NCBI GenBank assembly: GCA_042571445.1
Contig: JBHPFT010000001.1
Coordinates: 29,232-93,231, forward strand
DNA: 64,000 bases
Reading direction: 5' to 3'
From: Patescibacteria group bacterium
GTDB taxonomy: Bacteria > Patescibacteriota > WWE3 > UBA101185 > UBA10185
Shown one piece after another: positions 7,920-64,000 of this stretch. The translations under genes and the position numbers were made by a program. How positions within the stretch are numbered: the stretch's first letter is position 1; each line of letters starts with the position of its first letter. The notes beneath the pieces were generated by a model, which was not told the DNA's origin, ran no database searches, and was given only the letters and a program-made list of their open reading frames with translations.

Positions 7920-7920
7920 A

Positions 7921-39003: not shown

Positions 39004-39044
39004 ACCCTTATTTTAGCATGTTTATTGGTGTTATAATTTCACTA

Positions 39045-40247: not shown

Positions 40248-41366
40248 ATGAAAGTAGTAATAGTAATTCCTACATACAATGAAGCTGAAAATATTGGTCG
40301 TCTACTTGATGAGGTGAGTAAAGAAATTGGAAAGATTTCTCACGAGACAAGAGTACTAATAGTTGATGGTAGTTCCCCTGATGGTACAGCTGATGTTGTG
40401 AGAGAAAAGATGAAGTCCTACAAGTTTTTAGATATTGTGGTTAAGGAAAAGGGAGGACTTGGTGCAGACTACATTTACGGATTTAATCATGCTATGGAGA
40501 AGATGGGAGCAGACATAATTGTTGAAATGGATGCAGATTTTCAACATGACCCTAAAGACCTTCCTCGTTTAGTTGCAGAAATTGATAATGGTTACGACTA
40601 TATTATTGGGAGTAGATTTGTTAAGGGTGGTAGTATTCCAAAAGAGTGGGAATTCAAAAGGAAGCTTTTTAGTAGACTTGGAAATATTGTGTCTAAAGTA
40701 ATTTTAGGAATATTTAATATTAATGATTTCACAACTGGGTACAAGGTTTCTAGGGTTAAAGGGTTTGTAGATCAAATTGATTTTGATGCTGTTTTATCAA
40801 AAGGTTTTGCATACAAGATAAACCTTTTATTTAATATGTGCCAGTTAGGGGCTAAGGTAAAGGAAGTTCCTATTCAGTTTGCGACAAGAGACGAGGGTTC
40901 TTCCAAAATGGAGGGAAATAATTTGATGGACTCTTTGAGGGTGGTAGTTACTCTTAGACTTAAGGATAAAAAAACTCAAAGATTTTTAAAGTTCTGTGTT
41001 GTTGGATTTACCGGACTCTTTGTTGACTCCGGTCTTTTTAATTTATTTAGAGTCACAGTTTTTAGTTCTAAAGTATCTTCTCTAGTATCTGGATTTATCG
41101 CAATGATAACTACATTTCTATTAAATAACTTCTGGTCATTTAAAGAAAACAAGTTAGAGGGAGCAGGAAAGAAAGCATCTAGTTTTGTAGTTTACATAAT
41201 TTCTTCTTACGTCCCAATACTTTTTAGATCTTGGTTAATTAAGTTTAGTATTGATAGGTTTGGCGACACATTTATTGTTTCTAATGCAGCTTTCTTTATA
41301 GGAATTGTAATTGGACTAATTTGGAACTTTACTGTGTACAGTAGGATAATATGGAAGGATAAATAA
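40248..41366 (+). CDS. GT2 polyprenyl-phosphate sugar synthase (Dpm1/GtrB-like) fused to a GtrA-like membrane domain
   Basis: N-terminal IVIPTYNEAENI ... VDGSSPDGT ... DAD GT-A signature. The C-terminal roughly 130 aa have 4 TM helices (GtrA-like). Confidence 0.8.
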   Translation: MKVVIVIPTYNEAENIGRLLDEVSKEIGKISHETRVLIVDGSSPDGTADVVREKMKSYKFLDIVVKEKGGLGADYIYGFNHAMEKMGADIIVEMDADFQHDPKDLPRLVAEIDNGYDYIIGSRFVKGGSIPKEWEFKRKLFSRLGNIVSKVILGIFNINDFTTGYKVSRVKGFVDQIDFDAVLSKGFAYKINLLFNMCQLGAKVKEVPIQFATRDEGSSKMEGNNLMDSLRVVVTLRLKDKKTQRFLKFCVVGFTGLFVDSGLFNLFRVTVFSSKVSSLVSGFIAMITTFLLNNFWSFKENKLEGAGKKASSFVVYIISSYVPILFRSWLIKFSIDRFGDTFIVSNAAFFIGIVIGLIWNFTVYSRIIWKDK

Positions 41367-41367
41367 T

Positions 41368-42132
41368 ATGGAATATTCAATTGTTACACCAGCTTATAAC
41401 GAAGAAGACAAAATAACAGCTACTTTAACCCAGGCGGTTGGTTTTATGAGAGGTTTTAGTGACAGTTTTGAAGTAATTATTGTTAACGATGGTTCCAAAG
41501 ATTCTACAGAAGAGAAGGTGAAAGCATACTCTAAGGACAATCCTGAAGTTAAACTTCTTTCTATCCCACATAAAGGAAAGGGTGTTGCTGTATCGGCAGG
41601 TATTATGGCTGCAGAGGGAAAGTATATTTATATGGCTGATGCTGACCTTTCAGCGCCTATTAACGAACTCAAAAAACTTTCTGTTTGGATGATAGATCAG
41701 GATTACGATATTGTTATTGCAAGTAGAGAGGGTGTTGGGGCTAAAAGAGTTGGAGAACCTTTTTATAGGCATATTATGGGAAGAGTATTTAATATTATGA
41801 TTCAGATACTTGTACTACCTGGCATATCCGATACTCAATGTGGTTTCAAACTTTTCAAGAATAAGGTAGCAAAAGATGTATTTGGAAAGCTTAAAATCTA
41901 TAATATTGAAGGTAAGGAGCTTCAAGACGCATATCTCGGAGCATGGGATGTTGAGGTTTTGTATTTAGCACGTAAGATGGGGTATACTATCAAACAGGTT
42001 CCCGTGACCTGGACCTATGTTAAGACTACCAGGTTAAAACCTTTGAAGGACTCGGCCAAAATGGCTCTTGATGTCTTAAAAATAAGACTGAATGATTTAA
42101 AGGGTAAATATAAAACTGCCCAAAAACCCTAA
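41368..42132 (+). CDS. GT2 glycosyltransferase (dolichyl/polyprenyl-phosphate beta-glucosyltransferase-like)
   Basis: IVTPAYNEEDKI ... VNDGSKDST ... DADL. Confidence 0.8.
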   Translation: MEYSIVTPAYNEEDKITATLTQAVGFMRGFSDSFEVIIVNDGSKDSTEEKVKAYSKDNPEVKLLSIPHKGKGVAVSAGIMAAEGKYIYMADADLSAPINELKKLSVWMIDQDYDIVIASREGVGAKRVGEPFYRHIMGRVFNIMIQILVLPGISDTQCGFKLFKNKVAKDVFGKLKIYNIEGKELQDAYLGAWDVEVLYLARKMGYTIKQVPVTWTYVKTTRLKPLKDSAKMALDVLKIRLNDLKGKYKTAQKP

Positions 42133-42185
42133 ACTTTAGAGCCACGTATTTTATTTTTGCAGCTGTTGTGCTGTGAGGAGGACGA

Positions 42186-43559
42186 TTGATGAATATTTGT
42201 GTAGTTGGAACAGGGTATGTTGGTTTGGTTGGTGCCGCTATATTTGCAGATTGGGGAAACAGAATTATTGGTGTTGACATAGATGCAGAAAAGATAGAAA
42301 GAATAAAAAACGGTGAAATGCCGATATTTGAACCTGGTCTTTCCGAAATTGTTTCTAAAAATATTAAGAATGGAAATTTATCTTTTACTACATCTCTAGC
42401 AGAAGGTATGTCTGACGCAGAGATTGTTTTTATATGTGTGGGAACTCCAGAAAGTGACACAGGGCATGCTGATCTTTCTGCAATTTGGAAAGTATCTCAA
42501 GAGATTGGACAAAATCTTGGTAGTTATAAAGTAGTTGTTGTTAAAAGTACTGTACCAGTTGGTACAAATGAAAAGATTAAAGGAATTATTAAAGAGAATC
42601 TAGTATTTCAAACAGATTTTGATGTTGTTTCTAATCCAGAGTTCTTAAGAGAGGGGTACTCTGTTGAGGACATGATGGATCCGGATAGAACTGTTATAGG
42701 ATCAGACTCTGAAAGGGCACTTTCGATAATGAGAAGACTCTACGAACATTTAGGGAAACCAATTGTTGCATGTGATTTTAGATCAGCGGAAATGATTAAG
42801 TACGCTTCAAATGCATTTTTGGCTACTAAAATATCCTTTATTAATGAAATGGGACAGCTTTGTGAAAGGGCAGGAGCAGATGTATCCATGGTTGCAAAGG
42901 GAATGGGTCTCGATAATAGAATTGGTCCCAGGTTCTTAAATGCAGGTGTAGGTTACGGAGGAAGTTGTTTTCCTAAAGATGTTGAAGCTTTATATAAAAC
43001 ATCTACTGATCAAGCGTATGACTTTAAGCTTCTAAGGGGTGTTATGGAAGTTAATTCCACGCAAAAAGATCATTTTGTGTCAAAGATTACAAGGTATTTT
43101 GGTAAGAATCTATCTGGAAAAACAATTGCAGTACTAGGTCTTGCCTTCAAGCAAAACACAGATGATACTCGAGAGTCCGTTGCAATTAAAATAGTTAAAA
43201 TGTTGAGAGGCTTAGGAGCTGATATAAGAGTATACGATCCTGAGGCAATGTATAACGCTAAGAGAGAACTTGGGGAATCAGGAGTTACGTATTGCTTAGA
43301 CAAGTATGAGACTCTTGAAGGAGCAGATGCACTTGCGATTCTTACGGAGTGGCCTGATTTTGCGTCTTTGGATCTAAACAGAGTAAAAGACACTCTTAGA
43401 ACACCAACAATTTTTGATGGTAGAAATCTTTTAGATAGTAAAAAGGCTGAATCTTTAGGCTTTATATACTTCTGTGTTGGAATAAGAACTAACGGTACAG
43501 AGCTTCTAGATAAAAGACCTACCGGACATCCTGGTGTAATATTAAAGAATGGAAGGTAA
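42186..43559 (+). CDS. ugd: UDP-glucose 6-dehydrogenase
   Basis: N-terminal Rossmann fold VVGTGYVGLV and the catalytic GGSCFPKD motif. 457 aa. Confidence 0.9.
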   Translation: MMNICVVGTGYVGLVGAAIFADWGNRIIGVDIDAEKIERIKNGEMPIFEPGLSEIVSKNIKNGNLSFTTSLAEGMSDAEIVFICVGTPESDTGHADLSAIWKVSQEIGQNLGSYKVVVVKSTVPVGTNEKIKGIIKENLVFQTDFDVVSNPEFLREGYSVEDMMDPDRTVIGSDSERALSIMRRLYEHLGKPIVACDFRSAEMIKYASNAFLATKISFINEMGQLCERAGADVSMVAKGMGLDNRIGPRFLNAGVGYGGSCFPKDVEALYKTSTDQAYDFKLLRGVMEVNSTQKDHFVSKITRYFGKNLSGKTIAVLGLAFKQNTDDTRESVAIKIVKMLRGLGADIRVYDPEAMYNAKRELGESGVTYCLDKYETLEGADALAILTEWPDFASLDLNRVKDTLRTPTIFDGRNLLDSKKAESLGFIYFCVGIRTNGTELLDKRPTGHPGVILKNGR

Positions 43560-45944: not shown

Positions 45945-47137
45945 AAATATTAAGAATAATTTATGATTGGCCACCACCGTGGCAGGGGCTAGGACCACAT
46001 CCATATGAGCTTACTAAAGCACAGCTACAGCTTGGCCATGAAATTGATATATTATGTGGTAGATGGCCAAAAGCAGGACCAGTAGAAAAGCCCGCAGGAG
46101 TCAAAATGCACCCAATACTAAGAGAACCTTTTAATGGAGCAATCTTTTTTACTAGTTCAGTAATCCTTTTTTTCAAATACTTGTCTTTTAGAAGAAAGAA
46201 TAAGGTAGATATTATCCACTCTCACGGGCATTTTGCTATTTGGATATATCTTTATAGATTTCTTCTTCAAAGATTCTTTCCTTGGTCTAAGGAGCTAAAA
46301 ACTCCATTTGTTGTTCATTTCCACAATATTGCAAAGGATAGATGGGAGAAGATGGAGAAACAAGGAAAGGAGATAAAAAGTATGTCTAAAAAATTTAGTT
46401 GGCCTATGTCTGTTTTCTCGGATAGAAAATCTGTAGAAACCGCTTCTGCCTGTATTTTTGTTAGTGACGAGAATAAAGCCAAGGCTATTGAGCTTTATGG
46501 AGCAGATAAAAGAAGATGTTTTGTTGTTGAGTCGGGAGTAAACTCAACACTTTTTAAAAGGGTTTCTGATATTGAAAGAGAAAAATCGAGAAAGGATCTT
46601 GGATTAGATAGATACGACAAGGTTATATTAAATCATGGTGCTATGGTTGAAAGAAAGAATATTCATCTTTTGGTAGAATCTTTGGAGTTTTTACCTGATG
46701 ATTATAGACTTCTTCTTGTGGGATCTGGTGATAGTGATTATGTATTAAAGCTTAATGAAATAATAAAAGACAAGAAACTTATGAGCAGAGTAATTCAGGT
46801 TGGATACACACCATATCCCCAGACCCCAATTTCATACCAGGTTTCAGATATTTTTGTTTTGCCCTCTTCATGGGAAGGGTTGCCAAAGGTTGTTATGCAA
46901 GGACTTAGTTGTGGGGTACCTTGTTTAGTTTCAGGTTTTAAGCTTTCTGAGGATATAGATGGTCTTTTCTATCTAAAAGATAAAAAACCACAAAGTATCG
47001 CTCAAGAAATTCGAAGAATTCTTAATAGTAATCCCCGCGTTGATATAGATAAAGTTACAATAAATTACTCCTGGCTAAAGCGTGCTGAAGGAGTAGAGAA
47101 AGTTTATGATTTTGCCATTAAAAATTACTTGGTCTAA
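45941..47137 (+). CDS. GT4-like glycosyltransferase
   Basis: GT-B-like. VVMQGLSCGVPCLVS resembles the GT4 nucleotide-sugar-binding region. More divergent than the other two. Confidence 0.65.
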   Translation: MKILRIIYDWPPPWQGLGPHPYELTKAQLQLGHEIDILCGRWPKAGPVEKPAGVKMHPILREPFNGAIFFTSSVILFFKYLSFRRKNKVDIIHSHGHFAIWIYLYRFLLQRFFPWSKELKTPFVVHFHNIAKDRWEKMEKQGKEIKSMSKKFSWPMSVFSDRKSVETASACIFVSDENKAKAIELYGADKRRCFVVESGVNSTLFKRVSDIEREKSRKDLGLDRYDKVILNHGAMVERKNIHLLVESLEFLPDDYRLLLVGSGDSDYVLKLNEIIKDKKLMSRVIQVGYTPYPQTPISYQVSDIFVLPSSWEGLPKVVMQGLSCGVPCLVSGFKLSEDIDGLFYLKDKKPQSIAQEIRRILNSNPRVDIDKVTINYSWLKRAEGVEKVYDFAIKNYLV

Positions 47138-48686
47138 AAAAATATACATATATCTCTTATTTATAATTCTTCATTTTTTCTTAATGAATGTGAATACTGC
47201 AGAGTGGGGTGATACCTACAGGATTTTAAGGGGGTCGGAGTTTATTAGAGATAGTTTTTCTTACCCAATAGATGAGAAAAGACCTCCATTATTTTCTCTT
47301 ATTTTGGCAATCAGACCATCGTGTGTTGATCAGGTAGTTTGGGGTAGGGGAGTGATGCTTATTATCAGTCTAGGAGTATTTTATGTTTTTGATAAATTTA
47401 CTGATTTAATTTTTAAAAAAGAAAAAATTAAAAACATTTGTCTATTATTATTTGTTCTAAACCCCGTACTTTTATATTGGTCGTTAAGAGTATACGCAGA
47501 CACTCTTTTTGCCCTTTTGGTTCTGACTTCTTTTTTCTTAATCAAAAAGTGGGAAAAGAAGTTAGACACACGAAAAGTAGTAGTTTTAGGTCTTTTGTCA
47601 GGCCTTTCCATACTCACTAGATATGAAGGATACATTTTGTTTACCTCTATATTCGTTGGAGTCACGTTTTTAGGTGCAGAGGTAGATTTTAAGCTCAAAA
47701 AGGTTTTGAAACTGCTTAGATCTAGGTCTAAAAATCTTATTATTCTAGGTTTAACGACGTTCTTATCAGTACTTCCATATCTTGCGTTTCGTAATCCCCT
47801 AACCTCTCAATATTTCTCTGAACCACAAAGAAGAGTCTACGATACTAAAATGATTTGGGTCTATTTTGTTTCTTTAATATATATATTTGGATTCGTTTAT
47901 GGATTTTTCTTCTTGTTTAAAAAATCTAATGTGGTCATAGATTTTCTTAAAAAGAATGTGGGAATCCTAACATTTCTTGTTATTGAGAGTGTTTTAATTC
48001 TTTTGTGGCCAGCAGCCATTCCCAGACTTTTCGTCCCAATAATACCTTTCTTAGTAGTACTTTTTATGCTTTCCTTTGAAAAGCTTACAAGTTCAGCAAA
48101 GGTGCTTAGTTTTAAAGACTACACACTCCTAGGTTTTCTATTAGGTTTTTATGTTAGTAGTCAGTACTTTCTAAGACTTCAGTTTATGATTCTTAACACA
48201 AAAGTATTTGCTTTTCTTGTTGTTCTACAGCTCGTGATGGTGTTTTTTATGTATAAAAGAAAGTATTTTGTTTTTATCTATCTATCTCTAATCTCATGTA
48301 CTGTATGGTCTCTTGCCACAATCTATTTACATAAGGATATTTACACTGCTGTTAAAGCAGCTTCCATTTATGCAAGAAGAAACATTAAGGGAAATATTGG
48401 ATTTAATGATGTGACGAGTATTTCTGATTGGTATATTAATAACGCCAGTCCATCTTCTGATATTTCTGGATTTTTCTACTCTTTGCACTCTGATGAATCA
48501 GTAGGATATGGAAAACTTACAGATCATAAGATAACTCACCTACTTGTTACAAATGAAGACAGTGTTTCTGTGAACCCAGAGATTGAAAGAAAAAGTTACC
48601 TAAAGTTAGTTAAAGATTTTAGGTATAATATCGGGAGTAGGCATTTTTATGCCAGAGTTTATGAATTTAGAGGAGGTTTTAGATGA
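47106..48686 (+). CDS. GT-C fold membrane glycosyltransferase (ArnT/PMT, GT39/83-like)
   Basis: At least 11 TM helices. An acidic motif in the first extracytoplasmic loop (PIDEKRPP) and GLSILTRYEGY resemble the ArnT/PMT family. Confidence 0.65.
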   Translation: MILPLKITWSKKIYIYLLFIILHFFLMNVNTAEWGDTYRILRGSEFIRDSFSYPIDEKRPPLFSLILAIRPSCVDQVVWGRGVMLIISLGVFYVFDKFTDLIFKKEKIKNICLLLFVLNPVLLYWSLRVYADTLFALLVLTSFFLIKKWEKKLDTRKVVVLGLLSGLSILTRYEGYILFTSIFVGVTFLGAEVDFKLKKVLKLLRSRSKNLIILGLTTFLSVLPYLAFRNPLTSQYFSEPQRRVYDTKMIWVYFVSLIYIFGFVYGFFFLFKKSNVVIDFLKKNVGILTFLVIESVLILLWPAAIPRLFVPIIPFLVVLFMLSFEKLTSSAKVLSFKDYTLLGFLLGFYVSSQYFLRLQFMILNTKVFAFLVVLQLVMVFFMYKRKYFVFIYLSLISCTVWSLATIYLHKDIYTAVKAASIYARRNIKGNIGFNDVTSISDWYINNASPSSDISGFFYSLHSDESVGYGKLTDHKITHLLVTNEDSVSVNPEIERKSYLKLVKDFRYNIGSRHFYARVYEFRGGFR

Positions 48687-49372: not shown

Positions 49373-49375
49373 CTT

Positions 49376-51433: not shown

Positions 51434-51447
51434 GGTAACATTTAAGT

Positions 51448-52911: not shown

Positions 52912-54428
52912 AAAAAAGAACAAAAACCCTTTTGATAGGTCTTTTTATCCTGGCCTTTCTTGGGACTCGTATTCCAAGGCTTGCAAAAGATGTAATAAAT
53001 CCAGATGGAGTTAATTGGCATTACAGATCTCAACAGTTTGTAGTAGGTTTAAAGACATTTGATTTTAAAAAAACATATCAACACTATCATCCCGGAGTTA
53101 CTCTAATGTGGATTAGTGGAATACCTATTGAAATATATAAGCAAGTTACTAATACACCGCACTACGATGTTAGAAATTTTCAAGTATTTGATACTGTGGC
53201 CAAAATATCTGTTGTAGTTTCCCAGCTTATTCTTTCGTTTATTGTTTTATGTCTTTTAGATAAGATTATTGGGTTTGAAAGAGCCTTTTTAACGCTAAGT
53301 TTATTCACTTTTGAACCATTCGTTGTGGGAAACTCACGACTTTACCACATGGATATACTAGTAACCCTAATATTGTTTATTGGACTTCTCTATTCATTCA
53401 TTAATTTAAGGGAATCTAGTATAAAAGTGAGTGTTCTATCTGGATTATTTCTGGCTTTAGCATTTTTAACTAAAAGCATTGCTATTGGTGGAGTAGTTTA
53501 CGTTCTAATTTATATGTTAGTTACAAAAATGGAAAAGAAATATCTTGGAGTTGTTTTACTAGCTTTTTTTGTTTTTACCTTTTTTTTGTTCCCAGCACTT
53601 TGGAAAGATCCAATCTACTTTTTAGGAGAAATATTTAGAGAAGGAGAAAGAGTAGGTATAAGAAAAGGTCACGGACAGATTCTTTTTGGAGAATACACAA
53701 GAAACGCTGGAGTGTTTTTTTATCCCCTGGTTTTACTCATGAAGGTTTCCCCCCTTGTGTTAATTGGAGTAATTCTGTTTAAGGTAGTATCTTTAGATAG
53801 TTTCAAGAAGTTATTTAGGAGCACAAAAGAGAAGTTACACAACTTAACTGTATTTCTAGGTATTTTTTATCTTGGGTACATCGGTGTAATGACACTTCCC
53901 TCTAAAAAGATAGATAGATATATGTTAGTTGTTTATCCATTTCTAGCATATGTTGCAGCAATAGGGTTTAGTAAGGTTTTTAATAGGCTTAAAAATAAGA
54001 CTATTTTCTTAGTATTGTCAGGAGTTTCAGTAGCTATTTTTTGGATTTTTCCTTTAATAAAACTCTTTCCATACTACTTTACATATACAAGTCCAGTATT
54101 TGGAAGTGCGGAACGTGCAAATAGCGTTATTGCTCAAAAACCTTTTGGAGTTGGAACTTATGATTTGAAGTATCATATTATTGAAAAGTATGGAGAAGAG
54201 ATAAAACTTGGGTTTATAGATACTAAACCTATGAAGTCTACCTACTCTAACTCAAAAGTATTTGATGTTAGAGTATCTGGTACCAGTGATTATGATCTAT
54301 TAGTATTAGGAGTTAACGAGGAAATTCCTGAGAAGGTACTTCAAAGTGATAACACCTTTGAGAAAGATTCATCTTTATGGATTAATGGACTTGAGTATTG
54401 GAGGATCTATGTCAAAAAAGAAAATTAA
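52908..54428 (+). CDS. GT-C fold membrane glycosyltransferase, paralogue A
   Basis: Multi-TM. Shares KTYQ.YHPGVTLMW and the following loop with the gene at 55874. GLFLALAFLTKSIAIGG resembles the ArnT/PMT motif. Confidence 0.65.
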   Translation: MKKRTKTLLIGLFILAFLGTRIPRLAKDVINPDGVNWHYRSQQFVVGLKTFDFKKTYQHYHPGVTLMWISGIPIEIYKQVTNTPHYDVRNFQVFDTVAKISVVVSQLILSFIVLCLLDKIIGFERAFLTLSLFTFEPFVVGNSRLYHMDILVTLILFIGLLYSFINLRESSIKVSVLSGLFLALAFLTKSIAIGGVVYVLIYMLVTKMEKKYLGVVLLAFFVFTFFLFPALWKDPIYFLGEIFREGERVGIRKGHGQILFGEYTRNAGVFFYPLVLLMKVSPLVLIGVILFKVVSLDSFKKLFRSTKEKLHNLTVFLGIFYLGYIGVMTLPSKKIDRYMLVVYPFLAYVAAIGFSKVFNRLKNKTIFLVLSGVSVAIFWIFPLIKLFPYYFTYTSPVFGSAERANSVIAQKPFGVGTYDLKYHIIEKYGEEIKLGFIDTKPMKSTYSNSKVFDVRVSGTSDYDLLVLGVNEEIPEKVLQSDNTFEKDSSLWINGLEYWRIYVKKEN

Positions 54429-55887
54429 TATACTAGCTCTAATAGTTTTTATAGCACTTCTTTTTCGTTTGATGGGTATAAAGCATGGATTTCCCTTCAT
54501 TTTTCATCCAGATGAGCCAACTATTGTTAGGTCAGCTCTTGGAGTGAGATTTTATCCTAATCCAGGGCACTTCGACTGGCCACATCTATACATTTACCTT
54601 AACTACTTCTTATATATGATCTTTGCTAGGGTAAGAAATATTGCAGGAAGCTTAGGTTTAAGAGAAATAATTCCAATTTTGTGGGATGAGTCGGTAATTT
54701 TTTATCTTCTAACTAGGTGTTTTACTGCAATTTTAGGAGCTCTCACAACTATTCCAGTATATTTATCAGCAAAGAAGTTATTTAGTAAGAAGGTGGCTAT
54801 TGTTTCTGCTTTAGGGTTTGCATGTTTACCTTTTCATATTTGGCATTCACACTATTCTTTGTCTGATGCCCCTATGGTATTTATGCTTTCGTGGGCAATG
54901 TACTTTGGAGTAAAAATATACAAAGAAGGAAAATTAATTGATTATATTTTAGCGGGTCTTTTTGTAGGATTATCTGCATCCACAAAATATAATGGAGGAC
55001 TCTCTGCCTTAGTAATACCCCTTGCTTACATTCTAAGAAAAATACAAAATAAAAAGCCCATAATTGAGTGGAGGGAGATACAACGAATTGTAATTTCTGG
55101 GATAGTTTCCATCGCTGGATTTATTTTAGGTACGCCGTATTCTGTATTGGACTTTGCTACATTTACTCGAACAGATGGGCCAAAAGGAGCTTTGTGGCAG
55201 TTTAAAAATGTTGGATCAGTTAGTTTTCCAGAACATATAATTAAATTCTTTTCGGATTTGGAAACAAAACTTCCAGATGATCTAGGTTACACAGTGTTGG
55301 CTTTGTTTGTTGCTTGTTGGATAGTTGTTGTTTTAAAGATTATTAAAAAGAAGGTGACTGAGGAGTATTTTTCTCTCTTACTCTTTCTAATTCCTCCACT
55401 TTTATATATTTGGTATATCTCGGGCTTTGAAAAGAGTAGATCTCACTACTATATGATTTCTTACCCATTCATAGCAGTGGTGTTTGGTCACTTTGTTTTG
55501 TCTCTTTCAAACTTTTTTAAGAACAAAAAACTGGGGTTGTATCTTTCAGTGTTGATGGTGGTTGCTCCAATGATCTTTTCTATCAAAAATACCTATACAT
55601 TTATTAGAGGAGACACAAGAAACGATCTAAAAGAGTGGTTAGTATCTAGTTTAGAGCCCGGTGAGCCAATAATATATAACGACAGGAAGGCAGAGGATGT
55701 AATTAATCATCTTGGAGCACCGAAATACAAGGGTCTTTCGTACATGGGAGAGTTGGAAAGGGCAATGGTGATAATAATTAACCCAAACGAGATAAGTGTT
55801 CCAGAGAATTTAAGTGAGGAACATTATATTGGAAACAAACTTAGGCTGGGTCCTGAGATAAAGGTGTATAGATATGAAACTAATTAA
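54409..55887 (+). CDS. GT-C fold membrane glycosyltransferase (ArnT/PMT-like)
   Basis: FHPDEPT, then LSASTKYNGGL (ArnT/PMT-type motif), in a multi-TM protein. The start is chosen at MSKKKINIL. The ORF-track start at 54346 overlaps the upstream gene by 83 nt. Confidence 0.65.
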   Translation: MSKKKINILALIVFIALLFRLMGIKHGFPFIFHPDEPTIVRSALGVRFYPNPGHFDWPHLYIYLNYFLYMIFARVRNIAGSLGLREIIPILWDESVIFYLLTRCFTAILGALTTIPVYLSAKKLFSKKVAIVSALGFACLPFHIWHSHYSLSDAPMVFMLSWAMYFGVKIYKEGKLIDYILAGLFVGLSASTKYNGGLSALVIPLAYILRKIQNKKPIIEWREIQRIVISGIVSIAGFILGTPYSVLDFATFTRTDGPKGALWQFKNVGSVSFPEHIIKFFSDLETKLPDDLGYTVLALFVACWIVVVLKIIKKKVTEEYFSLLLFLIPPLLYIWYISGFEKSRSHYYMISYPFIAVVFGHFVLSLSNFFKNKKLGLYLSVLMVVAPMIFSIKNTYTFIRGDTRNDLKEWLVSSLEPGEPIIYNDRKAEDVINHLGAPKYKGLSYMGELERAMVIIINPNEISVPENLSEEHYIGNKLRLGPEIKVYRYETN

Positions 55888-57484
55888 GAGATTTAAATAT
55901 GAAATATTAGCTGTATTCTTTTTTGTTTTGATTAGAGTTCCTAATCTGGGAAGAGACATTTTCAACACAGATGCTTGGAAGTGGAAGACTAGAACTTACG
56001 ATTTTAATACAGGGGTCTTTACTCTGGATTTTGAGAAAACATATCAAAAGTATCATCCTGGTGTAACTTTAATGTGGGTAGGGTCAGCTGGAGTTAAGAT
56101 TCAAAATTTCTATCATAAAGTTATTCTTAATGACCCAGGTGAAGAACTACTAAATATATTTGAACTTCACTTCATCCAAAAATTGCTAGTAGTCACAGTT
56201 ATTGGGACCTCACTGGCTTTTTGTTTCTATGTTCTGCGAAGTTTGTTTGGTTTACAATTTGCTACTCTATCTACTTTTCTACTTTCGTTTGAACCCTTTT
56301 ATTTAGCTTTAACACGGGTTTTTCACTTGGAGGGGCTAGTTTCTACATTTATGTTAGCAAGTGTCTTATGGCTTTTTTACTATCTTTTTGATACCACTTT
56401 TAGAAAAAGGTTAGTAGTGTCTGCAATTTTTGCAGGTTTTTCATTTCTAACCAAAACTTCTTCTATTTACCTTTTACCTTTCACTCTTCTTGTAGTATTT
56501 TTAAATACTTATAGTAAAGATGATGTGTGGAATAGTTTTAAATCTACAATTTTAATTGTTTTAAAATGGTTTGGAATTTCTCTTTTAATCTTTGTAGCTT
56601 TATGGCCGGCACTTTGGGTTACACCTCTTGATGTAATTTTAGAACTTTATAGAGGTATTGCAGTGATAGGCGTAGAAAGAGAACACATTCAAGTTTATTT
56701 TAGCAAACTGGTTAAGAATCCAGGCCCAACTTTTTATCCGGTGGTTTTGGCTCTAAAATCTTTTGTGTTTTTACTTCCAGGTCTTTTAGGAACACTTGCT
56801 TTTTTAAAGGGCTTTGATGAAAAAAAGAAAAGATTTGTGAAGTTTTTACTAATATATTCATTTTTCTATTTCCTACAACTTACAATCCCATCAAAAAAAC
56901 TAGATAGATATATTCTCCCAGCTTTAATGTCTTTTTCACTTGTTTCTACTATGTTTTACTATTGGGTTTTAGGGAGACTGAAGAAGGGTAGGAAGTTTTT
57001 ACTTGTATTTATAATAGTTACTCCTATTCTCACTGCTATTAGTATCCATCCAGATTATCTTTCGTATCACAATCCACTTTTTGGAGGACTAGAGACTGGG
57101 ATAAAAGTCTTAGAACCAAAATGGATGATTGGTACTTCTGAGATCGTTTCCTACTTTGAAGAGATACGTGAAGATGAAAACTGGGAGAAACCTTCTTCTG
57201 ACACTTCTCTCGAAGCTCTGATTGGTTCAGAAAGAGTTGAGAGGGTTTTAGTGGTAGGGTTACCAGAAAAGTATTATACTCAAATTTGGCCCTTTCTTAG
57301 AGAGAAAAATATTTGGCCAGCCATTAAAGATTTAACAGCTTTTGCTAAACATGCAAAGTATTTTATTTACCCTGTTTGGCAAGATAGTAGTAGCTTTGAG
57401 GATAGATTTGAGATAGAGTATCTCGGCTCTATTAAAAAGGACGGAGTAGACTTGTACAACGTTTATAAAAGGATTTATCGGTGA
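55874..57484 (+). CDS. GT-C fold membrane glycosyltransferase, paralogue B
   Basis: EKTYQKYHPGVTLMWVG... closely parallels 52908..54428. GFSFLTKTSSIYL motif. At least 11 TM helices. Confidence 0.65.
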   Translation: MKLIKRFKYEILAVFFFVLIRVPNLGRDIFNTDAWKWKTRTYDFNTGVFTLDFEKTYQKYHPGVTLMWVGSAGVKIQNFYHKVILNDPGEELLNIFELHFIQKLLVVTVIGTSLAFCFYVLRSLFGLQFATLSTFLLSFEPFYLALTRVFHLEGLVSTFMLASVLWLFYYLFDTTFRKRLVVSAIFAGFSFLTKTSSIYLLPFTLLVVFLNTYSKDDVWNSFKSTILIVLKWFGISLLIFVALWPALWVTPLDVILELYRGIAVIGVEREHIQVYFSKLVKNPGPTFYPVVLALKSFVFLLPGLLGTLAFLKGFDEKKKRFVKFLLIYSFFYFLQLTIPSKKLDRYILPALMSFSLVSTMFYYWVLGRLKKGRKFLLVFIIVTPILTAISIHPDYLSYHNPLFGGLETGIKVLEPKWMIGTSEIVSYFEEIREDENWEKPSSDTSLEALIGSERVERVLVVGLPEKYYTQIWPFLREKNIWPAIKDLTAFAKHAKYFIYPVWQDSSSFEDRFEIEYLGSIKKDGVDLYNVYKRIYR

Positions 57485-58755
57485 GAACTTTACTAACAAA
57501 GTTAAAACAAAATACAGATCTATATAACACTGTAGTTGTAGGGGTGGGGAGTATTATAGCTTCAATCTTTAGCTATTTTTTACAACTATACCTTGGTAGA
57601 AATCTCACAGTTTCTGATTTTGGAGCTTTTAGTGCCCTTTTATCTTTGTATTACTTAATAAATGTTCCAGCGACAGTGTTTAGTACGTCTTTGGTAAAAA
57701 CAGTTTCTGAGATGGATCCCCAAAAAGACAAAGATAGAATCACCTACCTTTTTTCTAGACTGGGACAACTTGCTATTTTAGTTGGGTTTTCCATTTTCTT
57801 AGGAGTTTTTGCATTTAGGTTTGTTATCTCAGATCAACTTCAGATATCAAATACTGGAGCAATATCAGTTTATGGGATATTAATGGGACTTGGATTTGTG
57901 GGACTTTTGCCCCACTCATATCTTCAAGGTCTTCAGAAGTTTACCATGTTTGCAATTTACTTGATTGTTATCAATATAAATAGATTTATTATTCCAGCTA
58001 TTTTAGTGGCTTTAAGTTTTGGTTTGACTGGGGTTTTTAGTGGTATGTCTATAGCTATACTTTTGTCGTTTTTGATAGGTTTTCTATTCTTAAAAAGTAA
58101 TTTTAGTAAAGTAGACAAAAGTATTTCTCTTTCGGGTGAGTTCAAAAAGCTCTTGTCATTAAGTCTACCTGTTCTTTTAATACACTTTTGTATGATGGCC
58201 ATGAATAACGTAGATGTGATATTAATAAAAAAGTATTTTGATGAGATTACAGCTGGATATTATGCAGGAACAGTTACTCTTGGAAAGATAATATTATTTG
58301 GAGCAGGGGCAGTTACCATAGTTATGTATCCAAGAATTTCAGCGCTACACTCAAAAGGTCAGGAATATAGAAAGATCTTTAGAAATCTGTTTACTCTTCA
58401 GATCATAATAGTACTATCTGCCGTGACCGTCTTTGCACTACTTCCTGGTTTCATTACTAACCTCTTTTTTGGAGAAAGATTCTTGGATTCTATTTCTTAC
58501 CTTCCTTTCTTCTCAATATTTATTGGACTTTATGTTTTTGTTTATTTTCTAACCATGTTTAGTTTAGCTATAGATAAAAGGAAAGTTTATATGATTCTCA
58601 TTCCCCTTGTACTTACACAGTTTTTATTAATTACATTCTTTCACTCAACAATATTTCAAGTTATTAAAATCAATATTTTTGTATGTATAATAGCCCTAAT
58701 CGCCCTTTTAGCGTTTACACTGCCCAAAATATTAGTTGATGCCAAGGAAAAATAA
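57481..58755 (+). CDS. Wzx-like flippase / polysaccharide biosynthesis membrane protein (second copy)
   Basis: 424 aa with about 12-14 TM helices. GTG start. Confidence 0.65.
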   Translation: MRTLLTKLKQNTDLYNTVVVGVGSIIASIFSYFLQLYLGRNLTVSDFGAFSALLSLYYLINVPATVFSTSLVKTVSEMDPQKDKDRITYLFSRLGQLAILVGFSIFLGVFAFRFVISDQLQISNTGAISVYGILMGLGFVGLLPHSYLQGLQKFTMFAIYLIVININRFIIPAILVALSFGLTGVFSGMSIAILLSFLIGFLFLKSNFSKVDKSISLSGEFKKLLSLSLPVLLIHFCMMAMNNVDVILIKKYFDEITAGYYAGTVTLGKIILFGAGAVTIVMYPRISALHSKGQEYRKIFRNLFTLQIIIVLSAVTVFALLPGFITNLFFGERFLDSISYLPFFSIFIGLYVFVYFLTMFSLAIDKRKVYMILIPLVLTQFLLITFFHSTIFQVIKINIFVCIIALIALLAFTLPKILVDAKEK

Positions 58756-60577: not shown

Positions 60578-60829
60578 ATGTCTGAAGTAATATATAAAAA
60601 TAAGGACTCTGAGGTAATAATTAAAATATTAACTCACAAATGTATTAGTGCAGCTACATGTATTGTTAGAGCTCCAAACACCTTCGAATTGGACGATGAC
60701 GGAATCGCTTACTGCAAGAAAGGAACATGGGACGAGGCAGAGAAAATAATAGAGGGAGCCAAAACCTGTCCTACAACTGCAATTATTGTTGAGGATTTAG
60801 ATGGAAATCAGCTTTATCCAGATTTGTGA
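60578..60829 (+). CDS. small single-cluster ferredoxin-like protein
   Basis: 83 aa. C-x5-C (CISAATC) ... C ... C-P (KTCPTTAIIVEDLDG) aligns with Pyrococcus-type monocluster ferredoxins (CIGDAIC...CPVSAITIEEA). Confidence 0.6.
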   Translation: MSEVIYKNKDSEVIIKILTHKCISAATCIVRAPNTFELDDDGIAYCKKGTWDEAEKIIEGAKTCPTTAIIVEDLDGNQLYPDL

Positions 60830-60842
60830 TATTCTTTAAATC

Positions 60843-62426
60843 ATGCCTAAAAAGAAAGTTAAAGTAGTAGTTGGATATCCACCTGTTGAGTCTAAAAAAG
60901 GTGTGCCTCTTTTGTCTCAGAATAGGCAGTTTCAATATTTTAATGCTCCAACATTTATTTATCCCATGGTTCCTGCATATGCTGCATCCTTAGCTAAGAA
61001 ACGAGGGTATGATGTTTATTGGATGGACGGTATCGCAGAAGGTAAAAAGTATAACAAGTGGGTGGGGGAACTAGTAACTTTAGAACCAGACTTTATTCTG
61101 ATTGAGGTGAAGGCTCCAATAGTTAAGAAGTTTTGGAAAAAAGTTGATGATATTAAGAAAAGATGCCCGGAGACGATAGTGGTTTTATCTGGTGACCATG
61201 TTACATATGATCCTGTGGAAACACTGGATAACTGCAAAGTAGACTATATTATTACTGGGGGAGACTATGACTTTGTTTTCTCAGATCTACTAGATGCTTT
61301 AACTAAAGGAAATACTTTTCCAGGTGGAGTATGGAGTAGAAAAGAATCTAAGGGATTTGAAAAGAAGGGAAGGTACTGGTGTACGGGGGGAATGGATTTG
61401 CATCATAATCTTGATGATTTACCTTTTGTTGACAGAGATTTAACCAAATGGAAGCTTTATGCGTATGCAAACGGTAATTATAAGTTTAAACCAGCAACAT
61501 ACATGTATTCTGGAAGAGATTGTTGGTGGAATAGATGCACTTTTTGTATTTGGGATCATGTTTTGTATCCCCCAGGAAAATATAGAAGGTTTTCTCCAGA
61601 AAGACTCTTTGCTGAGGTTAAACATGTCGTAGATAACTACGGTGTGAAAGAGATATTTGATGATGCAGGAACCCTATTTGTTGGTCCCCCTCTTAAGAAG
61701 TTTTGTGAGATGTTAATTGATTCTGGTTATAACAAGAAAGTTGTTTACAGCTGCAATATGAGAATAAATGCTTTAACACGTGAGTATTACGATTTAATGG
61801 CAGAAGCTAACTTTAGATTTATTCTTTATGGACTTGAGTCAGGAAACCAAGAAACTCTAGATAAACTAGATAAAGGACTCAGGGTTGAAGAGATTGAGCC
61901 CAATCTTAAAAATGCTAAAGAAGCGGGTCTTGAGCCCCACGTAACTATAATGCTTGGGTATCCTTGGGAAACTGAGGAAATGGCCCAAAATACCATTAAT
62001 GTATCAAAAGAACTATTTAAAAAGGGCTACGTAGATACAATGCAAGCAACTATCGTTATTCCTTATCCAGGTTCCCCATTATACAAACAATGTCAGGAAA
62101 ATGATTGGTTCCAAGTAGATCCAAAAGATTATGAGAAGTTTGATATGAGACATCCTGTTATGAAAGTACCTTTTAGTAATGAGAGGCTTTTAGAACTCAC
62201 ACAGTCTCTTTACTCATCTTTCTTTAGTCCTCAGTATTTGTGGAGAAAAATAAAGGCAATTAGAACAAAAGAAGATATTAGGTGGTTTTTCATGGCAGCT
62301 CGAAGACTTCTTGCCCATCTTTTAGATTTTGATAAAGAGCAAGAGGGAGTTAATTGGTGGCACCCGAAGTTTTGGATAGATGCCGTTAAGAGTATGCTTG
62401 GTCATCTGAAAAAGTCTAATAAATAA
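60843..62426 (+). CDS. B12-binding-domain radical SAM protein
   Basis: The N-terminal domain has the class-B rSAM signature VVVGYPP...P.VPAYAASLAKKRGYDV. A Cys triad GRDCWWNRCTFC (C-x4-C-x2-C, aromatic after the last Cys) starts at about residue 228. A GLESG glycine-rich SAM-binding motif lies downstream. Confidence 0.8.
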   Translation: MPKKKVKVVVGYPPVESKKGVPLLSQNRQFQYFNAPTFIYPMVPAYAASLAKKRGYDVYWMDGIAEGKKYNKWVGELVTLEPDFILIEVKAPIVKKFWKKVDDIKKRCPETIVVLSGDHVTYDPVETLDNCKVDYIITGGDYDFVFSDLLDALTKGNTFPGGVWSRKESKGFEKKGRYWCTGGMDLHHNLDDLPFVDRDLTKWKLYAYANGNYKFKPATYMYSGRDCWWNRCTFCIWDHVLYPPGKYRRFSPERLFAEVKHVVDNYGVKEIFDDAGTLFVGPPLKKFCEMLIDSGYNKKVVYSCNMRINALTREYYDLMAEANFRFILYGLESGNQETLDKLDKGLRVEEIEPNLKNAKEAGLEPHVTIMLGYPWETEEMAQNTINVSKELFKKGYVDTMQATIVIPYPGSPLYKQCQENDWFQVDPKDYEKFDMRHPVMKVPFSNERLLELTQSLYSSFFSPQYLWRKIKAIRTKEDIRWFFMAARRLLAHLLDFDKEQEGVNWWHPKFWIDAVKSMLGHLKKSNK

Positions 62427-63978
62427 TCGATAGCTGGTTTATTCTAACTTGAGTTGGTCCCCACATATATCTGTTATCTCTATACATTGACATATTATCA
62501 GGATCATTTACTACAGAGTTATTTTCAATAAATATCTTTGCTCCTAGTCCAAGAGATTCTTGTGGGATTAAAACGTCTAGATCCATAGTTTTTTTCATCC
62601 GAGGTCTAATTTTTAGCTTTATCTCTTCTTTTCCGACCACTGTGATACTAGATCCCTTTGTTAAAGTTATGTTTAAAAAGAGATATCTAGTATTAGCATC
62701 TAAGGCGCTGTTAAAAACAAGTTTTGGTTTATCCTTTAGATCGGAAAATACGTTTGCAGATAGTAGTTTTGCATTTAGAGCATTCAAATTTTTCTTATAC
62801 GCTATTTCAAAGTATGGCAGCTCACCCTTTTTTCCTGAGTATATTAAGGCGAAGTTATTTACAAACTCTGTTTCGAGATAATCTAGAATATCTAGATCAA
62901 ATGTTATTACTCTTTTTGATTTAAGTAGCTCTTTTAAACCTTCCGCATCTAAAGTCAACCTCATATACTCTAAATTAGCTTTTATATAGATACTTTCATC
63001 AAAGATTTTGATTATATACTTACTTTCACCTTTCCCTTGGGATGTTTCTACTAGAACTAGAGTATCGCTATCAGTGGTTTGGGCTGCTGCGCTCACAATA
63101 CTACTTCTGTATTTATAGTCTCTAAAGGGTTCAAAAAGAGTTTCTTTCCACCTTGAGAAGTGGATAAGAAGTAAAGCTAATCCAGTTACTAGTACAGCTT
63201 TATTGGTCTTTTTAATATTTTTTAGATTTTCTATTCCTAAAGCACCTAAAAGAGAGGCAGGTATATATAGAGGTAATTGAAATCTTGTTGTAGCAAAGCT
63301 TAGAAATACCATTCCTACATACGGTATTGACGTTATAAGGATTGGAAGTCCTTTCTTTGAGAATACCGATGTGGAAACTAAGAAAAGTAGTAACCAGAAG
63401 TAAACACCTTGATAACTCAGTAGGAGATAAAACTTGTCTATCCTTGGGTTATTAAAATGTTCCAGATTATCAAATAGGCCTCTATGCGGAATAAGAAGAT
63501 GTTGAACTTTATCTATGGCCAGTCTCATAAATAGTACGGGGTGTTCTAGTATCCACTCTATTGCACCTTTTCTTAAAGCTTTATCAAGGCTTGATTCTAT
63601 ACTTACTCTTCTCTCTTTCATTAAATTCTTATCACCAATAATCTCCTCTATTTTTGCATCGGGGGAGATTATCGCTCTTCCACTTTGTATCGAATCATTA
63701 TTCCCGAGAAGCATATTAATACCTCCATTTGTGGCTATAGAGGTAAACTGACCTGCCAATAAACTATTTCTAACTATCCAGGAGGTACAGACTAAAAAGC
63801 TGGTTATTGCGATTGTGGTAATTTTCTTATTAAGTTTTTTGTTTCTGACAGACTCATAACCAGCTAGTATAAAAAGTAGTGGTATGTAAACGATATAGAT
63901 TGGTCTCACAAGTACTAATAAGCCACCACAAATTCCACCCAAAATTGGAAAACTTCTCTCTTCTTTTTTTAAAGACAT
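62416..63978 (-). CDS. GT-C fold membrane glycosyltransferase (ArnT-like), possibly N-terminally incomplete
   Basis: 520 aa, multi-TM, convergent with the rSAM gene. The frame stays open upstream of the first ATG to the window edge, so the true start may lie outside the window. Confidence 0.55.
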   Translation of the reverse strand: MSLKKEERSFPILGGICGGLLVLVRPIYIVYIPLLFILAGYESVRNKKLNKKITTIAITSFLVCTSWIVRNSLLAGQFTSIATNGGINMLLGNNDSIQSGRAIISPDAKIEEIIGDKNLMKERRVSIESSLDKALRKGAIEWILEHPVLFMRLAIDKVQHLLIPHRGLFDNLEHFNNPRIDKFYLLLSYQGVYFWLLLFLVSTSVFSKKGLPILITSIPYVGMVFLSFATTRFQLPLYIPASLLGALGIENLKNIKKTNKAVLVTGLALLLIHFSRWKETLFEPFRDYKYRSSIVSAAAQTTDSDTLVLVETSQGKGESKYIIKIFDESIYIKANLEYMRLTLDAEGLKELLKSKRVITFDLDILDYLETEFVNNFALIYSGKKGELPYFEIAYKKNLNALNAKLLSANVFSDLKDKPKLVFNSALDANTRYLFLNITLTKGSSITVVGKEEIKLKIRPRMKKTMDLDVLIPQESLGLGAKIFIENNSVVNDPDNMSMYRDNRYMWGPTQVRINQLSIIY

Positions 63979-64000
63979 GAGTGTTGAGTAGATTATTACC

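Follow-up and report, generated by a model that had tools for sequence, protein, structure and literature searches.

What does a bacterium of the candidate division WWE3 build with a long, tightly packed run of membrane glycosyltransferase (GT) genes, and on which acceptor is the product assembled? The question is raised by a stretch of 64,000 nucleotides of contig JBHPFT010000001.1 from a Patescibacteria group bacterium, the whole of which is called the window here; the locus in question occupies 38.8-62.4 kb of it. An earlier note, made from the sequence alone, had read the region as a glycosylation island serving an extracytoplasmic, stepwise route to a glycosylated surface protein. The results showed that the region is one copy of an operon rich in GT-C enzymes, in which about 20 genes lie on a single strand over about 22 kb, and that WWE3 (Katanobacteria, within the candidate phyla radiation, CPR, or Patescibacteria) inherits this operon vertically as part of its core gene content. 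Judging from its gene content, we consider it probable that the operon encodes a two-compartment assembly line for a core glycoconjugate of the cell envelope.

All frames between 38.8 and 62.4 kb lie on the plus strand, and they overlap or are spaced by at most 53 bp. The 5' part of the operon reads CAP, an 86-aa protein, GT2-GtrA, GT2b, Ugd, three GT4 genes, GT-C1, GT2c and DUF2079; the 3' part reads Wzx1, GT-C3, GT-C4, GT-C5, Wzx2, a double GT2, a ferredoxin and a B12-radical-SAM enzyme (Table 1). Pfam searches confirmed the inventory of the earlier note, namely three GT2 enzymes resembling dolichol-phosphate mannose synthase (DPMS), GtrB and ArnC (one of them joined to GtrA), ugd, three GT4 enzymes, two MOP/Wzx flippases and a double GT2. 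Six GT-C proteins in the cluster, five complete and a sixth (62416) cut by the window end, were likewise upheld by Pfam, HHalign and predicted folds. Four items had been absent from that inventory: the 86-aa protein, the ferredoxin, the HpnJ-like radical-SAM enzyme and the extension of the cluster past the window. A scan for promoters and terminators yielded sites no more numerous than in shuffled controls.

We surveyed one genome per species with a DUF2079 alignment, which yielded 80 loci; a first genome scan with the GT-C3 protein (52908) alone had found none. Nearly all 80 loci were labelled as WWE3 or as unclassified Patescibacteria or 'Saccharibacteria', the complete genome RAAC2_WWE3_1 (CP006914.1) among them, and the great majority of GT-C1 and DUF2079 homologues belonged to candidate division WWE3 or to unclassified Patescibacteria. 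Many record titles among loci L018-L086 read 'uncultured Candidatus Saccharibacteria', and one 'Candidatus Nomurabacteria'; these labels look coarse or wrong. Collinearity was counted over 13 core genes in the 46 loci with 10 kb on both sides. Every one of the 46 was collinear on one strand, which places the arrangement far beyond chance, and 31 held all 13 core genes. The operon followed secY-adk-CAP in every locus whose flank reached that far, and four relatives had the same order after secY-ybaB-adk-CAP, and in three of these GT-C1 identity was as low as 40-45%.

Median identities to the window were 68% for ugd, 67% for GT2c, 63% for GT2b, 60% for GT2-GtrA and 55% for GT4c; among the membrane genes they were 53% for DUF2079, 52% for Wzx1 and 41-49% for the GT-Cs. 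These core-gene medians (40-68%) fall in the same range as the housekeeping genes adk (41-51%) and secY (63-67%), and conservation at this level argues for a structural product and not a variable antigen. GT2c was the second most conserved core gene after ugd (61-76% in WWE3, 43-47% in the distant group) and always adjoined the DUF2079 GT-C gene. The distant group, in which DUF2079 is 28-35% identical, kept GT-C1-GT2c-DUF2079-Wzx1-GT-C4/5 together with further PMT_2 genes. The constant adjacency and co-conservation of GT2c and DUF2079 suggest that they form a donor-synthase/transferase pair, like ArnC/ArnT.

The word island did not survive this comparison. The GC content of the window is about 0.35, with 0.33-0.37 in the cluster against 0.33-0.39 outside it, so there is no compositional break, and neither a tRNA nor an integrase was found at the locus. 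With these results and the collinearity of all 46 full-flank loci, a horizontally acquired island was ruled out; the locus is a vertically inherited core operon across the WWE3 class, directly after the ribosomal/secY/adk block.

Some parts of the operon vary. In 51 loci a flippase-like LPG_synthase_TM gene of about 295 aa stood between Wzx1 and GT-C3 (for example L002:15716-16603 and L006:15969-16859); it is absent from the window lineage, where tblastn found no remnant, and has been lost there. L064 and L078, the two divergent loci examined in detail, carried epimerase/dehydratase genes in place of ugd. The 62416 gene was only 41% identical to its orthologue in L004, against 67-89% for the neighbouring genes. 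Past that orthologue, L004:1-10020 encodes a PMT_2 protein (724 aa), two methyltransferases, a GT2, a GT4, a DegT aminotransferase, an acetyltransferase-GT4 fusion and a polytopic protein of 1185 aa that has no Pfam match and whose N-terminus (first transmembrane helix, TM1, then 'KDDW') looks GT-C-like. The divergence of 62416 and these downstream genes indicate that the cluster continues past the window as a variable region.

We then compared the polytopic proteins with known GT-C enzymes. Hydropathy gave 7-12 transmembrane (TM) segments in each of the five complete proteins. Searched by sequence against the PDB, the family profiles of GT-C1, DUF2079 and GT-C3 gave no significant match, so that only fold comparison was informative for GT-C1 and DUF2079; it covered these two proteins, and the other four GT-Cs were assigned from Pfam PMT_2/PMT matches and HHalign links. 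AlphaFold2 (AF2) models of both showed a helical bundle with C-terminal alpha/beta or beta domains. The GT-C1 model, built with 51 homologues, reached a pLDDT of 90 and a pTM of 0.90, and all 19 Foldseek matches in the PDB at E <= 0.001 were GT-C enzymes, as were most of the top 40. ArnT led (5f15/5ezm; E 7e-7, TM score 0.57), followed by STT3, ALG9, AglB and AftD, with Pmt, Emb, DPY19, ALG3 and AftB just beneath the E 0.001 threshold. For the DUF2079 model (pLDDT 88.5), the top 17 matches (E <= 0.001) were all GT-C enzymes, among them AglB, STT3A/B, DPY19 and ArnT; AglB was best (E 5.6e-7), and TM scores across the GT-C matches were modest (0.36-0.44). Its C-terminal beta-sandwich bore a weak likeness to the O-antigen-binding domain of Wzt (2r5o, E 5e-3). 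In these models DUF2079 resembles AglB and STT3 by fold alone; no WWDYG-type or WWD motif was found in any GT-C protein of the locus, and the STT3 Pfam match of GT-C4, read from 54346, lay below the cutoff (E 0.006).

On the predicted folds of GT-C1 and DUF2079 and the family matches of the rest, the polytopic proteins are GT-C enzymes. Transporters or O-antigen polymerases, which the earlier note had named as the outcome that would overturn its reading, were rejected: no Wzy_C or transporter Pfam matches occurred, and at E <= 0.001 both modelled folds matched GT-C enzymes only. GT-C1, GT-C3, GT-C4 and GT-C5 are mutually homologous (HHalign of orthologue alignments, probability 87-100%; about 95% for GT-C3 to GT-C1 and GT-C4), and DUF2079 stands apart by sequence. 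GT-C5 and GT-C3 share 30% identity over 511 aa (E 9e-54; HHalign probability 100%) and are the only paralogues detectable by BLAST; because the others are related at profile or fold level only, recent tandem duplication was ruled out as the source of the set. GT-C4 matched yeast Pmt1 (6p25_A, E 7e-6); its frame can be read from a GTG at 54346, but the orthologues begin at ATG 54409. The 62416 gene is convergent with the operon; its frame is open to the window end, and the full protein (P0121, 742 aa, 100% identical) carries the NCBI label GT39-family. Its first 215 aa lie beyond the window, as does most of its PMT_2 match, and a GT87 match was sub-threshold. A frameshift or an alternative genetic code was ruled out for this gene, the frame of which merely leaves the window.

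Residue conservation was assessed in the five complete GT-Cs over 51-72 orthologues each, with a criterion of at least 95%. GT-C1 conserves E33-W-G-D36 and E57-K-R59 in the first outer loop (61 orthologues), and DUF2079 conserves D39, D44, D65, H78 and D80 (72 orthologues). In GT-C3, N31-P32-D33 is invariant after TM1; GT-C4 keeps a D56-E57 'DE' motif and D77 (numbered from 54346), and GT-C5 keeps D33 after TM1. In each protein the conserved Asp/Glu residues lie in the loop that comes after TM1 and a K/R-rich N-terminus, where GT-C enzymes have their catalytic acid, and by the positive-inside rule this loop would face outward. The donors of these enzymes would be lipid-phosphate-linked sugars, for which the co-encoded DPMS-like synthases give indirect support.

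The results showed further that four GT2 domains, not three, resemble DPMS, GtrB and ArnC in sequence. GT2-GtrA aligned end to end with the DPMS of P. furiosus (5mlz), four TM helices included (E 5.7e-42). The best PDB match of GT2b was GtrB sll0501 (E 1.2e-16), followed by DPMS (3e-14) and ArnC (3e-12); GT2c matched DPMS 5mlz (E 5.5e-21) and then ArnC (8e-17), and the N-domain of the double GT2 also matched 5mlz best (E 1.5e-14). D-x-D (D-A-D) motifs are conserved (D95-x-D97 in GT2-GtrA, D91-x-D93 in GT2b). Polyprenyl-phosphate glycosyltransferase is the likely activity class of all four domains. The division of labour proposed in the earlier note, with Dpm1-like synthases on one side and GT-C transferases on the other, is therefore backed by family, fold and best structure matches. 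The best NCBIfam match of GT2c was AglJ (111 bits against a cutoff of 325), with ArnC at 68 against 529; no equivalog-level orthology to ArnC, AglJ, PpgS or PgfS was found, all NCBIfam scores being far below the cutoffs, and the substrates cannot be named for that reason.

GT2-GtrA possesses its own 4-TM GtrA/DPMS domain. GT2b and GT2c contain no TM helix, like human DPM1, and as synthases they would consequently need a membrane partner. The 86-aa protein shows two to three TM-like hydrophobic stretches when read by eye, has no Pfam or NCBIfam match and is conserved in most WWE3 loci (36-84% identity). We speculate that it might be a membrane anchor for GT2b and GT2c, as DPM2/DPM3 are for human DPM1. 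The double GT2 corresponds to two adjacent genes in L010:19516-21355 (the complete RAAC2_WWE3_1) and L051:19170-21000; in the window lineage and L004 it is a gene fusion or the result of a lost stop codon.

We also looked for genes of initiation, polymerisation and ligation. Pfam scans bore out the earlier statement that the window holds no phosphoglycosyltransferase (PGT), Wzy, Wzz or WaaL: Bac_transf, Glycos_transf_4, Wzy_C and Wzz matched none of the window open reading frames (ORFs) scanned, and neither WaaL nor LCP was found in the window. Across the relatives, 137 ORFs of at least 200 aa that matched no window gene formed 50 clusters, of which 34 representatives were scanned with Pfam, most of the other clusters being annotated already; Wzy_C, Wzz and LCP were found neither in these (about 75 WWE3 loci) nor in the 10 kb beyond the window in L004. 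A PGT of PglC size (Bac_transf, 193.6 bits) lies at L063:1136-1828, 44 bp upstream of the GT4 trio of a divergent WWE3-type genome. In a distant relative, Wzy_C is fused to PMT_2 at the cluster end, in an ORF that leaves the locus (L083:20206-22062). The two Wzx-like flippases and the three GT4s, which have no TM helices by hydropathy, point to a lipid-linked-oligosaccharide branch, and the PGT beside the GT4 trio in L063 makes a Wzx-dependent, pyrophosphate (PP)-linked branch likely. Most likely, priming occurs in trans and the GT4/Wzx part acts on the resulting PP-linked oligosaccharide. The claim that this is not a classic Wzx/Wzy route therefore holds in so far as the window has no PGT or Wzy; the Wzx pair, the GT4s and the L063 PGT nevertheless imply a lipid-linked-oligosaccharide branch.

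In the assembly line that we propose, Ugd would supply UDP-glucuronic acid in the cytoplasm, where the three GT4s and the second GT2 domain of the double enzyme would build an oligosaccharide on a membrane lipid carrier, most likely primed by a phosphoglycosyltransferase encoded elsewhere. The four DPMS/GtrB/ArnC-like GT2 domains would load single sugars onto polyprenyl phosphate. The two MOP flippases and the GtrA-like TM domain would carry the lipid-linked sugars outward, probably assisted in most relatives by the LPG_synthase_TM protein. Outside, five to six GT-Cs would add single sugars one by one, with GT2c and DUF2079 as the putative oldest synthase/transferase couple, and the variable distal region from 62416 (minus strand) onward would probably add strain-specific decoration. 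The data show which genes are present, to which families and folds they belong, that residues of catalytic type are conserved, and how the operon is built and kept in synteny. Sugar identities, step order, flippase assignments and the acceptor are what we infer from this.

Our best guess is that the acceptor is an acidic heteropolysaccharide or a lipoglycan anchored in the membrane or the wall. The numbers of GT-Cs and donors, the PGT and Wzy_C found in relatives and the Wzt-like domain hint at such a polymer. The LPG_synthase_TM gene of 51 loci is a further hint of a glycan or lipid-linked-oligosaccharide branch. At least the PMT-like GT-C4 may, from its sequence, also glycosylate secreted proteins, and polymer and protein acceptors are mutually compatible. 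Several points weigh against the proposed assembly line and its polymer acceptor. The whole case rests on homology, and the equivalog models AglJ, ArnC, PpgS, TuaD and HpnJ all score far below their cutoffs. The PGT adjoins the cluster in one of about 80 loci only, the fusion of Wzy_C to PMT_2 was seen in the distant relative alone, and no LCP, WaaL/PglL or WWDYG-STT3 transferase was found for attaching a finished glycan. GT2b and GT2c could equally be ordinary soluble GT2s acting on the growing lipid-linked glycan. The Wzt-like match is weak and concerns a beta-sandwich, a fold prone to promiscuous matches. The PMT-type DE motif of GT-C4, a GT-C-like protein with tetratricopeptide repeats (TPR) encoded between secA and lepB, and the distinct S-layers reported for CPR cells (PMC6146748) point to protein acceptors; the CAP protein upstream of the operon is a hint on the same side.

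These last points lead to the alternative that survives best, dedicated glycosylation of an S-layer, a pilin or another secreted protein, the reading of the earlier note, here modelled on the Agl N-glycosylation of Haloferax volcanii; we regard it as somewhat unlikely. The Agl set comprises AglJ, AglG, AglI, AglE, AglM, AglR, AglD, AglS and AglB, and its DPMS-like GT2s have two roles, starting a glycan on a polyprenyl monophosphate and, separately, producing a lipid-P-sugar donor (PMC3871713). On this alternative, an AglJ-like start on polyprenyl monophosphate would need no PGT, extension would proceed by GT2 and GT4 enzymes with glucuronic acid provided through Ugd, and an AglR-like flip would be followed outside by GT-C transfer to protein and addition of terminal sugars (AglS-/PMT-like). 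The gene content does parallel the Agl set (PMC3871713), with DPMS-like GT2s, a UDP-glucose dehydrogenase, a Wzx-like flippase and GT-Cs in one cluster, and the window is without a PGT. Two GT2s have AglJ as best NCBIfam match (111 and 75 bits), Ugd matches AglM (393 bits), the second GT2 domain of the double enzyme matches the glucuronosyltransferase AglG (62 bits), and the nearest folds of DUF2079 are AglB and STT3; the PMT match of GT-C4 above threshold, the conserved gene order around the TPR-bearing GT-C and the reported S-layer add to this side. However, all Agl-type matches are far below equivalog cutoffs, the WWDYG motif of an AglB/STT3 oligosaccharyltransferase is in none of the GT-Cs, and the locus offers no co-conserved acceptor candidate except the CAP-domain protein. 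The 5-8 GT-Cs, many more than in Agl, and the four donor synthases exceed the needs of any known O- or N-glycosylation system, the L063 PGT next to the GT4 trio argues for PP-linked priming, and the tight GT2c-DUF2079 pairing suggests a monosaccharide donor for DUF2079 and not en bloc transfer.

An ordinary Wzx/Wzy locus for a capsule, an exopolysaccharide or a teichuronic-acid-like polymer, with PGT, polymerase and ligase encoded elsewhere and the GT-Cs acting as Gtr-type side-chain decorators, appears very unlikely. Two Wzx-like flippases, three GT4s, ugd and GT2s are all present, the best NCBIfam matches include TuaD, TuaC and TuaG of the B. subtilis teichuronic acid operon, and both the PGT adjoining the GT4 trio in L063 and the Wzy_C domain in the L083 cluster would fit. 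Yet Wzy_C, Wzz and LCP were missing from the window, the L004 extension and the scanned extra ORFs, and O-antigen and capsule loci are normally hypervariable, whereas this operon is collinear class-wide with housekeeping-level conservation. In addition, the GT-Cs outnumber the other enzyme classes, and the oldest sub-module is GT-C/GT2/GT-C/Wzx and not PGT/Wzy. Least probable of all is a mere co-location of independent three-component (GtrA/GtrB/GtrC- or ArnC/ArnT-like) systems with separate targets and no single product: the synthase-GT-C adjacencies (GT2c-DUF2079, GT-C1-GT2c), the four synthase-like domains beside five to six GT-Cs and the high divergence of the GT-C families (DUF2079 unrelated by sequence, the rest linked at HHalign level, GT-C3/5 apart) would suit it, but overlapping frames and core genes collinear across 46 species argue for one co-regulated pathway, and simple three-component systems have no use for the GT4 trio, ugd or the MOP flippases.

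The two-compartment assembly line was also set beside characterised pathways. By its genes, the operon appears close in logic to four known systems and a sequence-level member of none. The mycobacterial and corynebacterial pathway to phosphatidylinositol mannosides, lipomannan (LM), lipoarabinomannan (LAM) and arabinogalactan employs the GT4 enzymes PimA/PimB', the synthase Ppm1 and the GT-Cs PimE, MptA/B/C, EmbA/B/C and AftA-D. Like LM/LAM synthesis, the WWE3 operon would combine cytoplasmic GT4 steps, flipping and then many GT-Cs with polyprenyl-phosphate donors into a core, lineage-defining envelope product without Wzy. Unlike it, WWE3 uses PMT_2/ArnT-like and DUF2079 enzymes and not GT53, GT85, GT87 or GT89, with no sequence-level orthology, and encodes them compactly in one operon, beside ugd and two MOP flippases, in a CPR genome of about 0.9 Mb; we know of no mycolate or arabinogalactan wall in WWE3. 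Haloferax Agl, the second system, shares the gene classes named above and differs in the ways already given.

Three-component systems include GtrA/GtrB/GtrC, ArnC/ArnT, RgtE/RgtA-D (with polyprenyl-P-galacturonic acid) and, in Gram-positives, CsbB/GtcA/YfhO; the Rgt donor is a uronic acid derived from Ugd. As in these, a GT2 synthase, a GtrA-type TM module and a GT-C are encoded side by side in WWE3. Such systems have one GT-C and add one sugar to an existing glycoconjugate, whereas the operon has four synthase domains and at least 5-6 GT-Cs and adds GT4s and MOP flippases. In the lipid-linked-oligosaccharide pathway of the eukaryotic endoplasmic reticulum (ER), the cytosolic ALG1/2/11, RFT1, the synthases DPM1 and ALG5, the luminal GT-Cs ALG3/9/12/6/8/10 and STT3 act together. 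The WWE3 operon resembles it in its cytosolic GT4 enzymes, a MOP-like flippase candidate and at least two DPM1-type synthases that would feed a far-side GT-C series; it differs in having no ALG7-/WecA-type enzyme in the locus and only PMT_2, PMT, weak STT3 and DUF2079 matches in Pfam, with no relation to ALG families detected by sequence. Actinobacterial protein O-mannosylation (Ppm1 and Pmt, GT39) has its counterpart in the PMT/PMT_2 matches, DE motif and Pmt1 match of GT-C4 and in the DPMS-like synthases, but its single Pmt leaves the GT4s, the Wzx flippases, ugd and the other GT-Cs of WWE3 unexplained.

Table 1. Features of the operon and two genes outside it, with positions in the window.
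Feature	Position	Strand	Evidence or remark
CAP/SCP-domain membrane protein	38823..39989	+	Pfam CAP E 2.5e-20
86-aa putative membrane protein	39986..40246	+	4-bp overlap with CAP gene; ends 1 bp before 40248
GT2-GtrA, DPMS-type GT2 with 4-TM GtrA/DPMS domain	40248..41366	+	Glycos_transf_2 88 bits, GtrA_DPMS_TM 53.5 bits
GT2b, GtrB/DPMS-like, without TM helices	41368..42132	+	Pfam GT2 104.6 bits
Ugd, UDP-glucose 6-dehydrogenase	42186..43559	+	all three UDPG_MGDP_dh domains
GT4 trio (GT-B)	43549-44757, 44754-45944, 45941-47137	+	Glycos_transf_1 / Glyco_transf_4
GT-C1, ArnT-like (predicted), about 12 TM helices, small C-terminal domain	47106..48686	+	AF2/Foldseek; PMT_2 E 7e-4
GT2c, DPMS-like, without TM helices	48683..49372	+	Pfam GT2 130.9 bits
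DUF2079 GT-C (predicted), C-terminal alpha/beta and beta-sandwich domain of about 245 aa	49376..51433	+	DUF2079 E 8.6e-36
MOP-superfamily (Wzx-like) flippase 1 (Wzx1)	51448..52911	+	Polysacc_synt_3 70.4 bits, Polysacc_synt 61.5 bits, above cutoff
GT-C3, PMT_2-type	52908..54428	+	PMT_2 29.9 bits vs cutoff 26.1
GT-C4, most PMT-like GT-C	54409..55887	+	PMT_2 52 bits, PMT 45 bits (cutoff 22.7)
GT-C5, GT-C3 paralogue	55874..57484	+	PMT_2 24.8 bits, just under cutoff
MOP-superfamily (Wzx-like) flippase 2 (Wzx2)	57481..58755	+	Polysacc_synt_3 51.4 bits, Polysacc_synt 46.1 bits
Double GT2 with C-terminal TM helices	58736..60577	+	two Glycos_transf_2 stretches, Glyco_trans_2_3
Small 4Fe-4S ferredoxin	60578..60829	+	Fer4_13 E 4e-9
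B12-binding radical-SAM enzyme, HpnJ-like	60843..62426	+	Radical_SAM 73 bits and B12-binding match
GT-C6, C-terminal 527 aa of a 742-aa PMT_2-type GT-C	62416..64000	-	PMT_2 32.1 bits, full protein
GT-C-like membrane protein with C-terminal TPR, outside operon	13776..15350	-	TPR_8 E 1e-21; PMT_2 E 8.7e-4, below cutoff
UppP/BacA undecaprenyl-diphosphate phosphatase, outside operon	10381..11196	+	BacA E 9.8e-78

Among the remaining operon genes, Ugd scored above the NCBIfam cutoff for NDP-sugar dehydrogenase (476 bits) and under the equivalog cutoffs of TuaD (554 bits) and AglM (393 bits). The orthologue of the CAP protein precedes the operon in the relatives (46-86% identity in most loci reaching that far). 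The CAP ORF of the window begins about 70 codons upstream of the orthologue starts, and its true start is probably near 39045. It overlaps a minus-strand ORF of 268 aa (38197-39003) with faint TPR matches, which is also called in L001. At the other end, the ferredoxin (60-80% identical in the loci that reach it) and the radical-SAM enzyme close the operon as a pair kept in L004, L051 and partly L010, and the ferredoxin is the likely electron donor of its neighbour. The best NCBIfam match of the radical-SAM enzyme was HpnJ (161 bits, E 4.6e-47, against an equivalog cutoff of 578). In hopanoid synthesis, HpnJ catalyses a ring contraction of the sugar in a lipid-linked glucosamine, and this best family match suggests by analogy that the WWE3 enzyme may rearrange or methylate a lipid-linked sugar by radical chemistry.

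Positions 1-38 kb of the window carry housekeeping genes: ftsK, a release factor, rpoA, ribosomal proteins, serS, uppP, secA and lepB, and further rpoBC, fusA, tuf, the S10/spc ribosomal operon, secY and adk. The earlier note had assigned uppP a part in carrier recycling for the locus; its identity as UppP/BacA is sound, and no link to the operon was found, the gene lying about 29 kb away behind secA, rpoBC and the ribosomal operon. The same note had counted the 13776 protein as a further TPR-bearing GT-C; the TPR match is strong and the PMT_2 match weak. The order secA, GT-C-TPR, lepB (11224-15928) is retained in L087 (87% identity) and L088 (50% identity), which hints at a link to Sec-exported proteins. 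On an unrelated metagenome contig of 88 kb (L089, Ga0194053_10000042), at least five tandem TPR-GT-C homologues with 23-29% identity lie at 4472-13246, so that uncultured lineages other than WWE3 also have arrays of GT-C paralogues. A minus-strand ORF of 195 aa (3305-3892) with no Pfam match separates the release-factor gene from the ribosomal protein genes.

Our literature search found no description of this operon, of the function of DUF2079 or of GT-C enrichment in CPR. Kantor et al. (2013) reported that glycosyltransferases were abundant, 'particularly' in WWE3, and that WWE3 had no complete identifiable peptidoglycan pathway (PMC3812714). A genomic survey described glycan biosynthesis in Patescibacteria as almost missing except for peptidoglycan and lipopolysaccharide (PMC7137472). 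In contrast to such accounts, in which CPR/Patescibacteria usually appear with almost no glycan biosynthesis beyond peptidoglycan (e.g. PMC7137472), WWE3 genomes of about 0.9 Mb devote 2.5-4% of their DNA to one strictly conserved, GT-C-dominated glycan operon. For the cell envelope of a lineage that has no isolate, the operon is a tangible point of attack that can be tested. The predicted GT-C fold is a first structural assignment for DUF2079, an uncharacterised family that is paired here with a dedicated DPMS-like synthase. In addition, the operon is a compact bacterial model for studying how several polyprenyl-phosphate donors feed a GT-C series, a logic so far examined chiefly in mycobacteria, in archaea and in the ER of eukaryotes. 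A bolder reading, which we hold to be decidedly unlikely, is that WWE3 makes its main envelope polymer or an S-layer glycan along a pathway of ER/archaeal type: GT4s would make a lipid-linked oligosaccharide inside, MOP flippases would flip it, GT-Cs fed by several DPM1-like synthases would extend it outside, and DUF2079, with its STT3-like fold, would hand it on. If true, the luminal ALG pathway would have its first counterpart in bacteria, and, as WWE3 is reported to lack a complete peptidoglycan pathway (PMC3812714), the product could be a wall polymer that partly or wholly replaces peptidoglycan.

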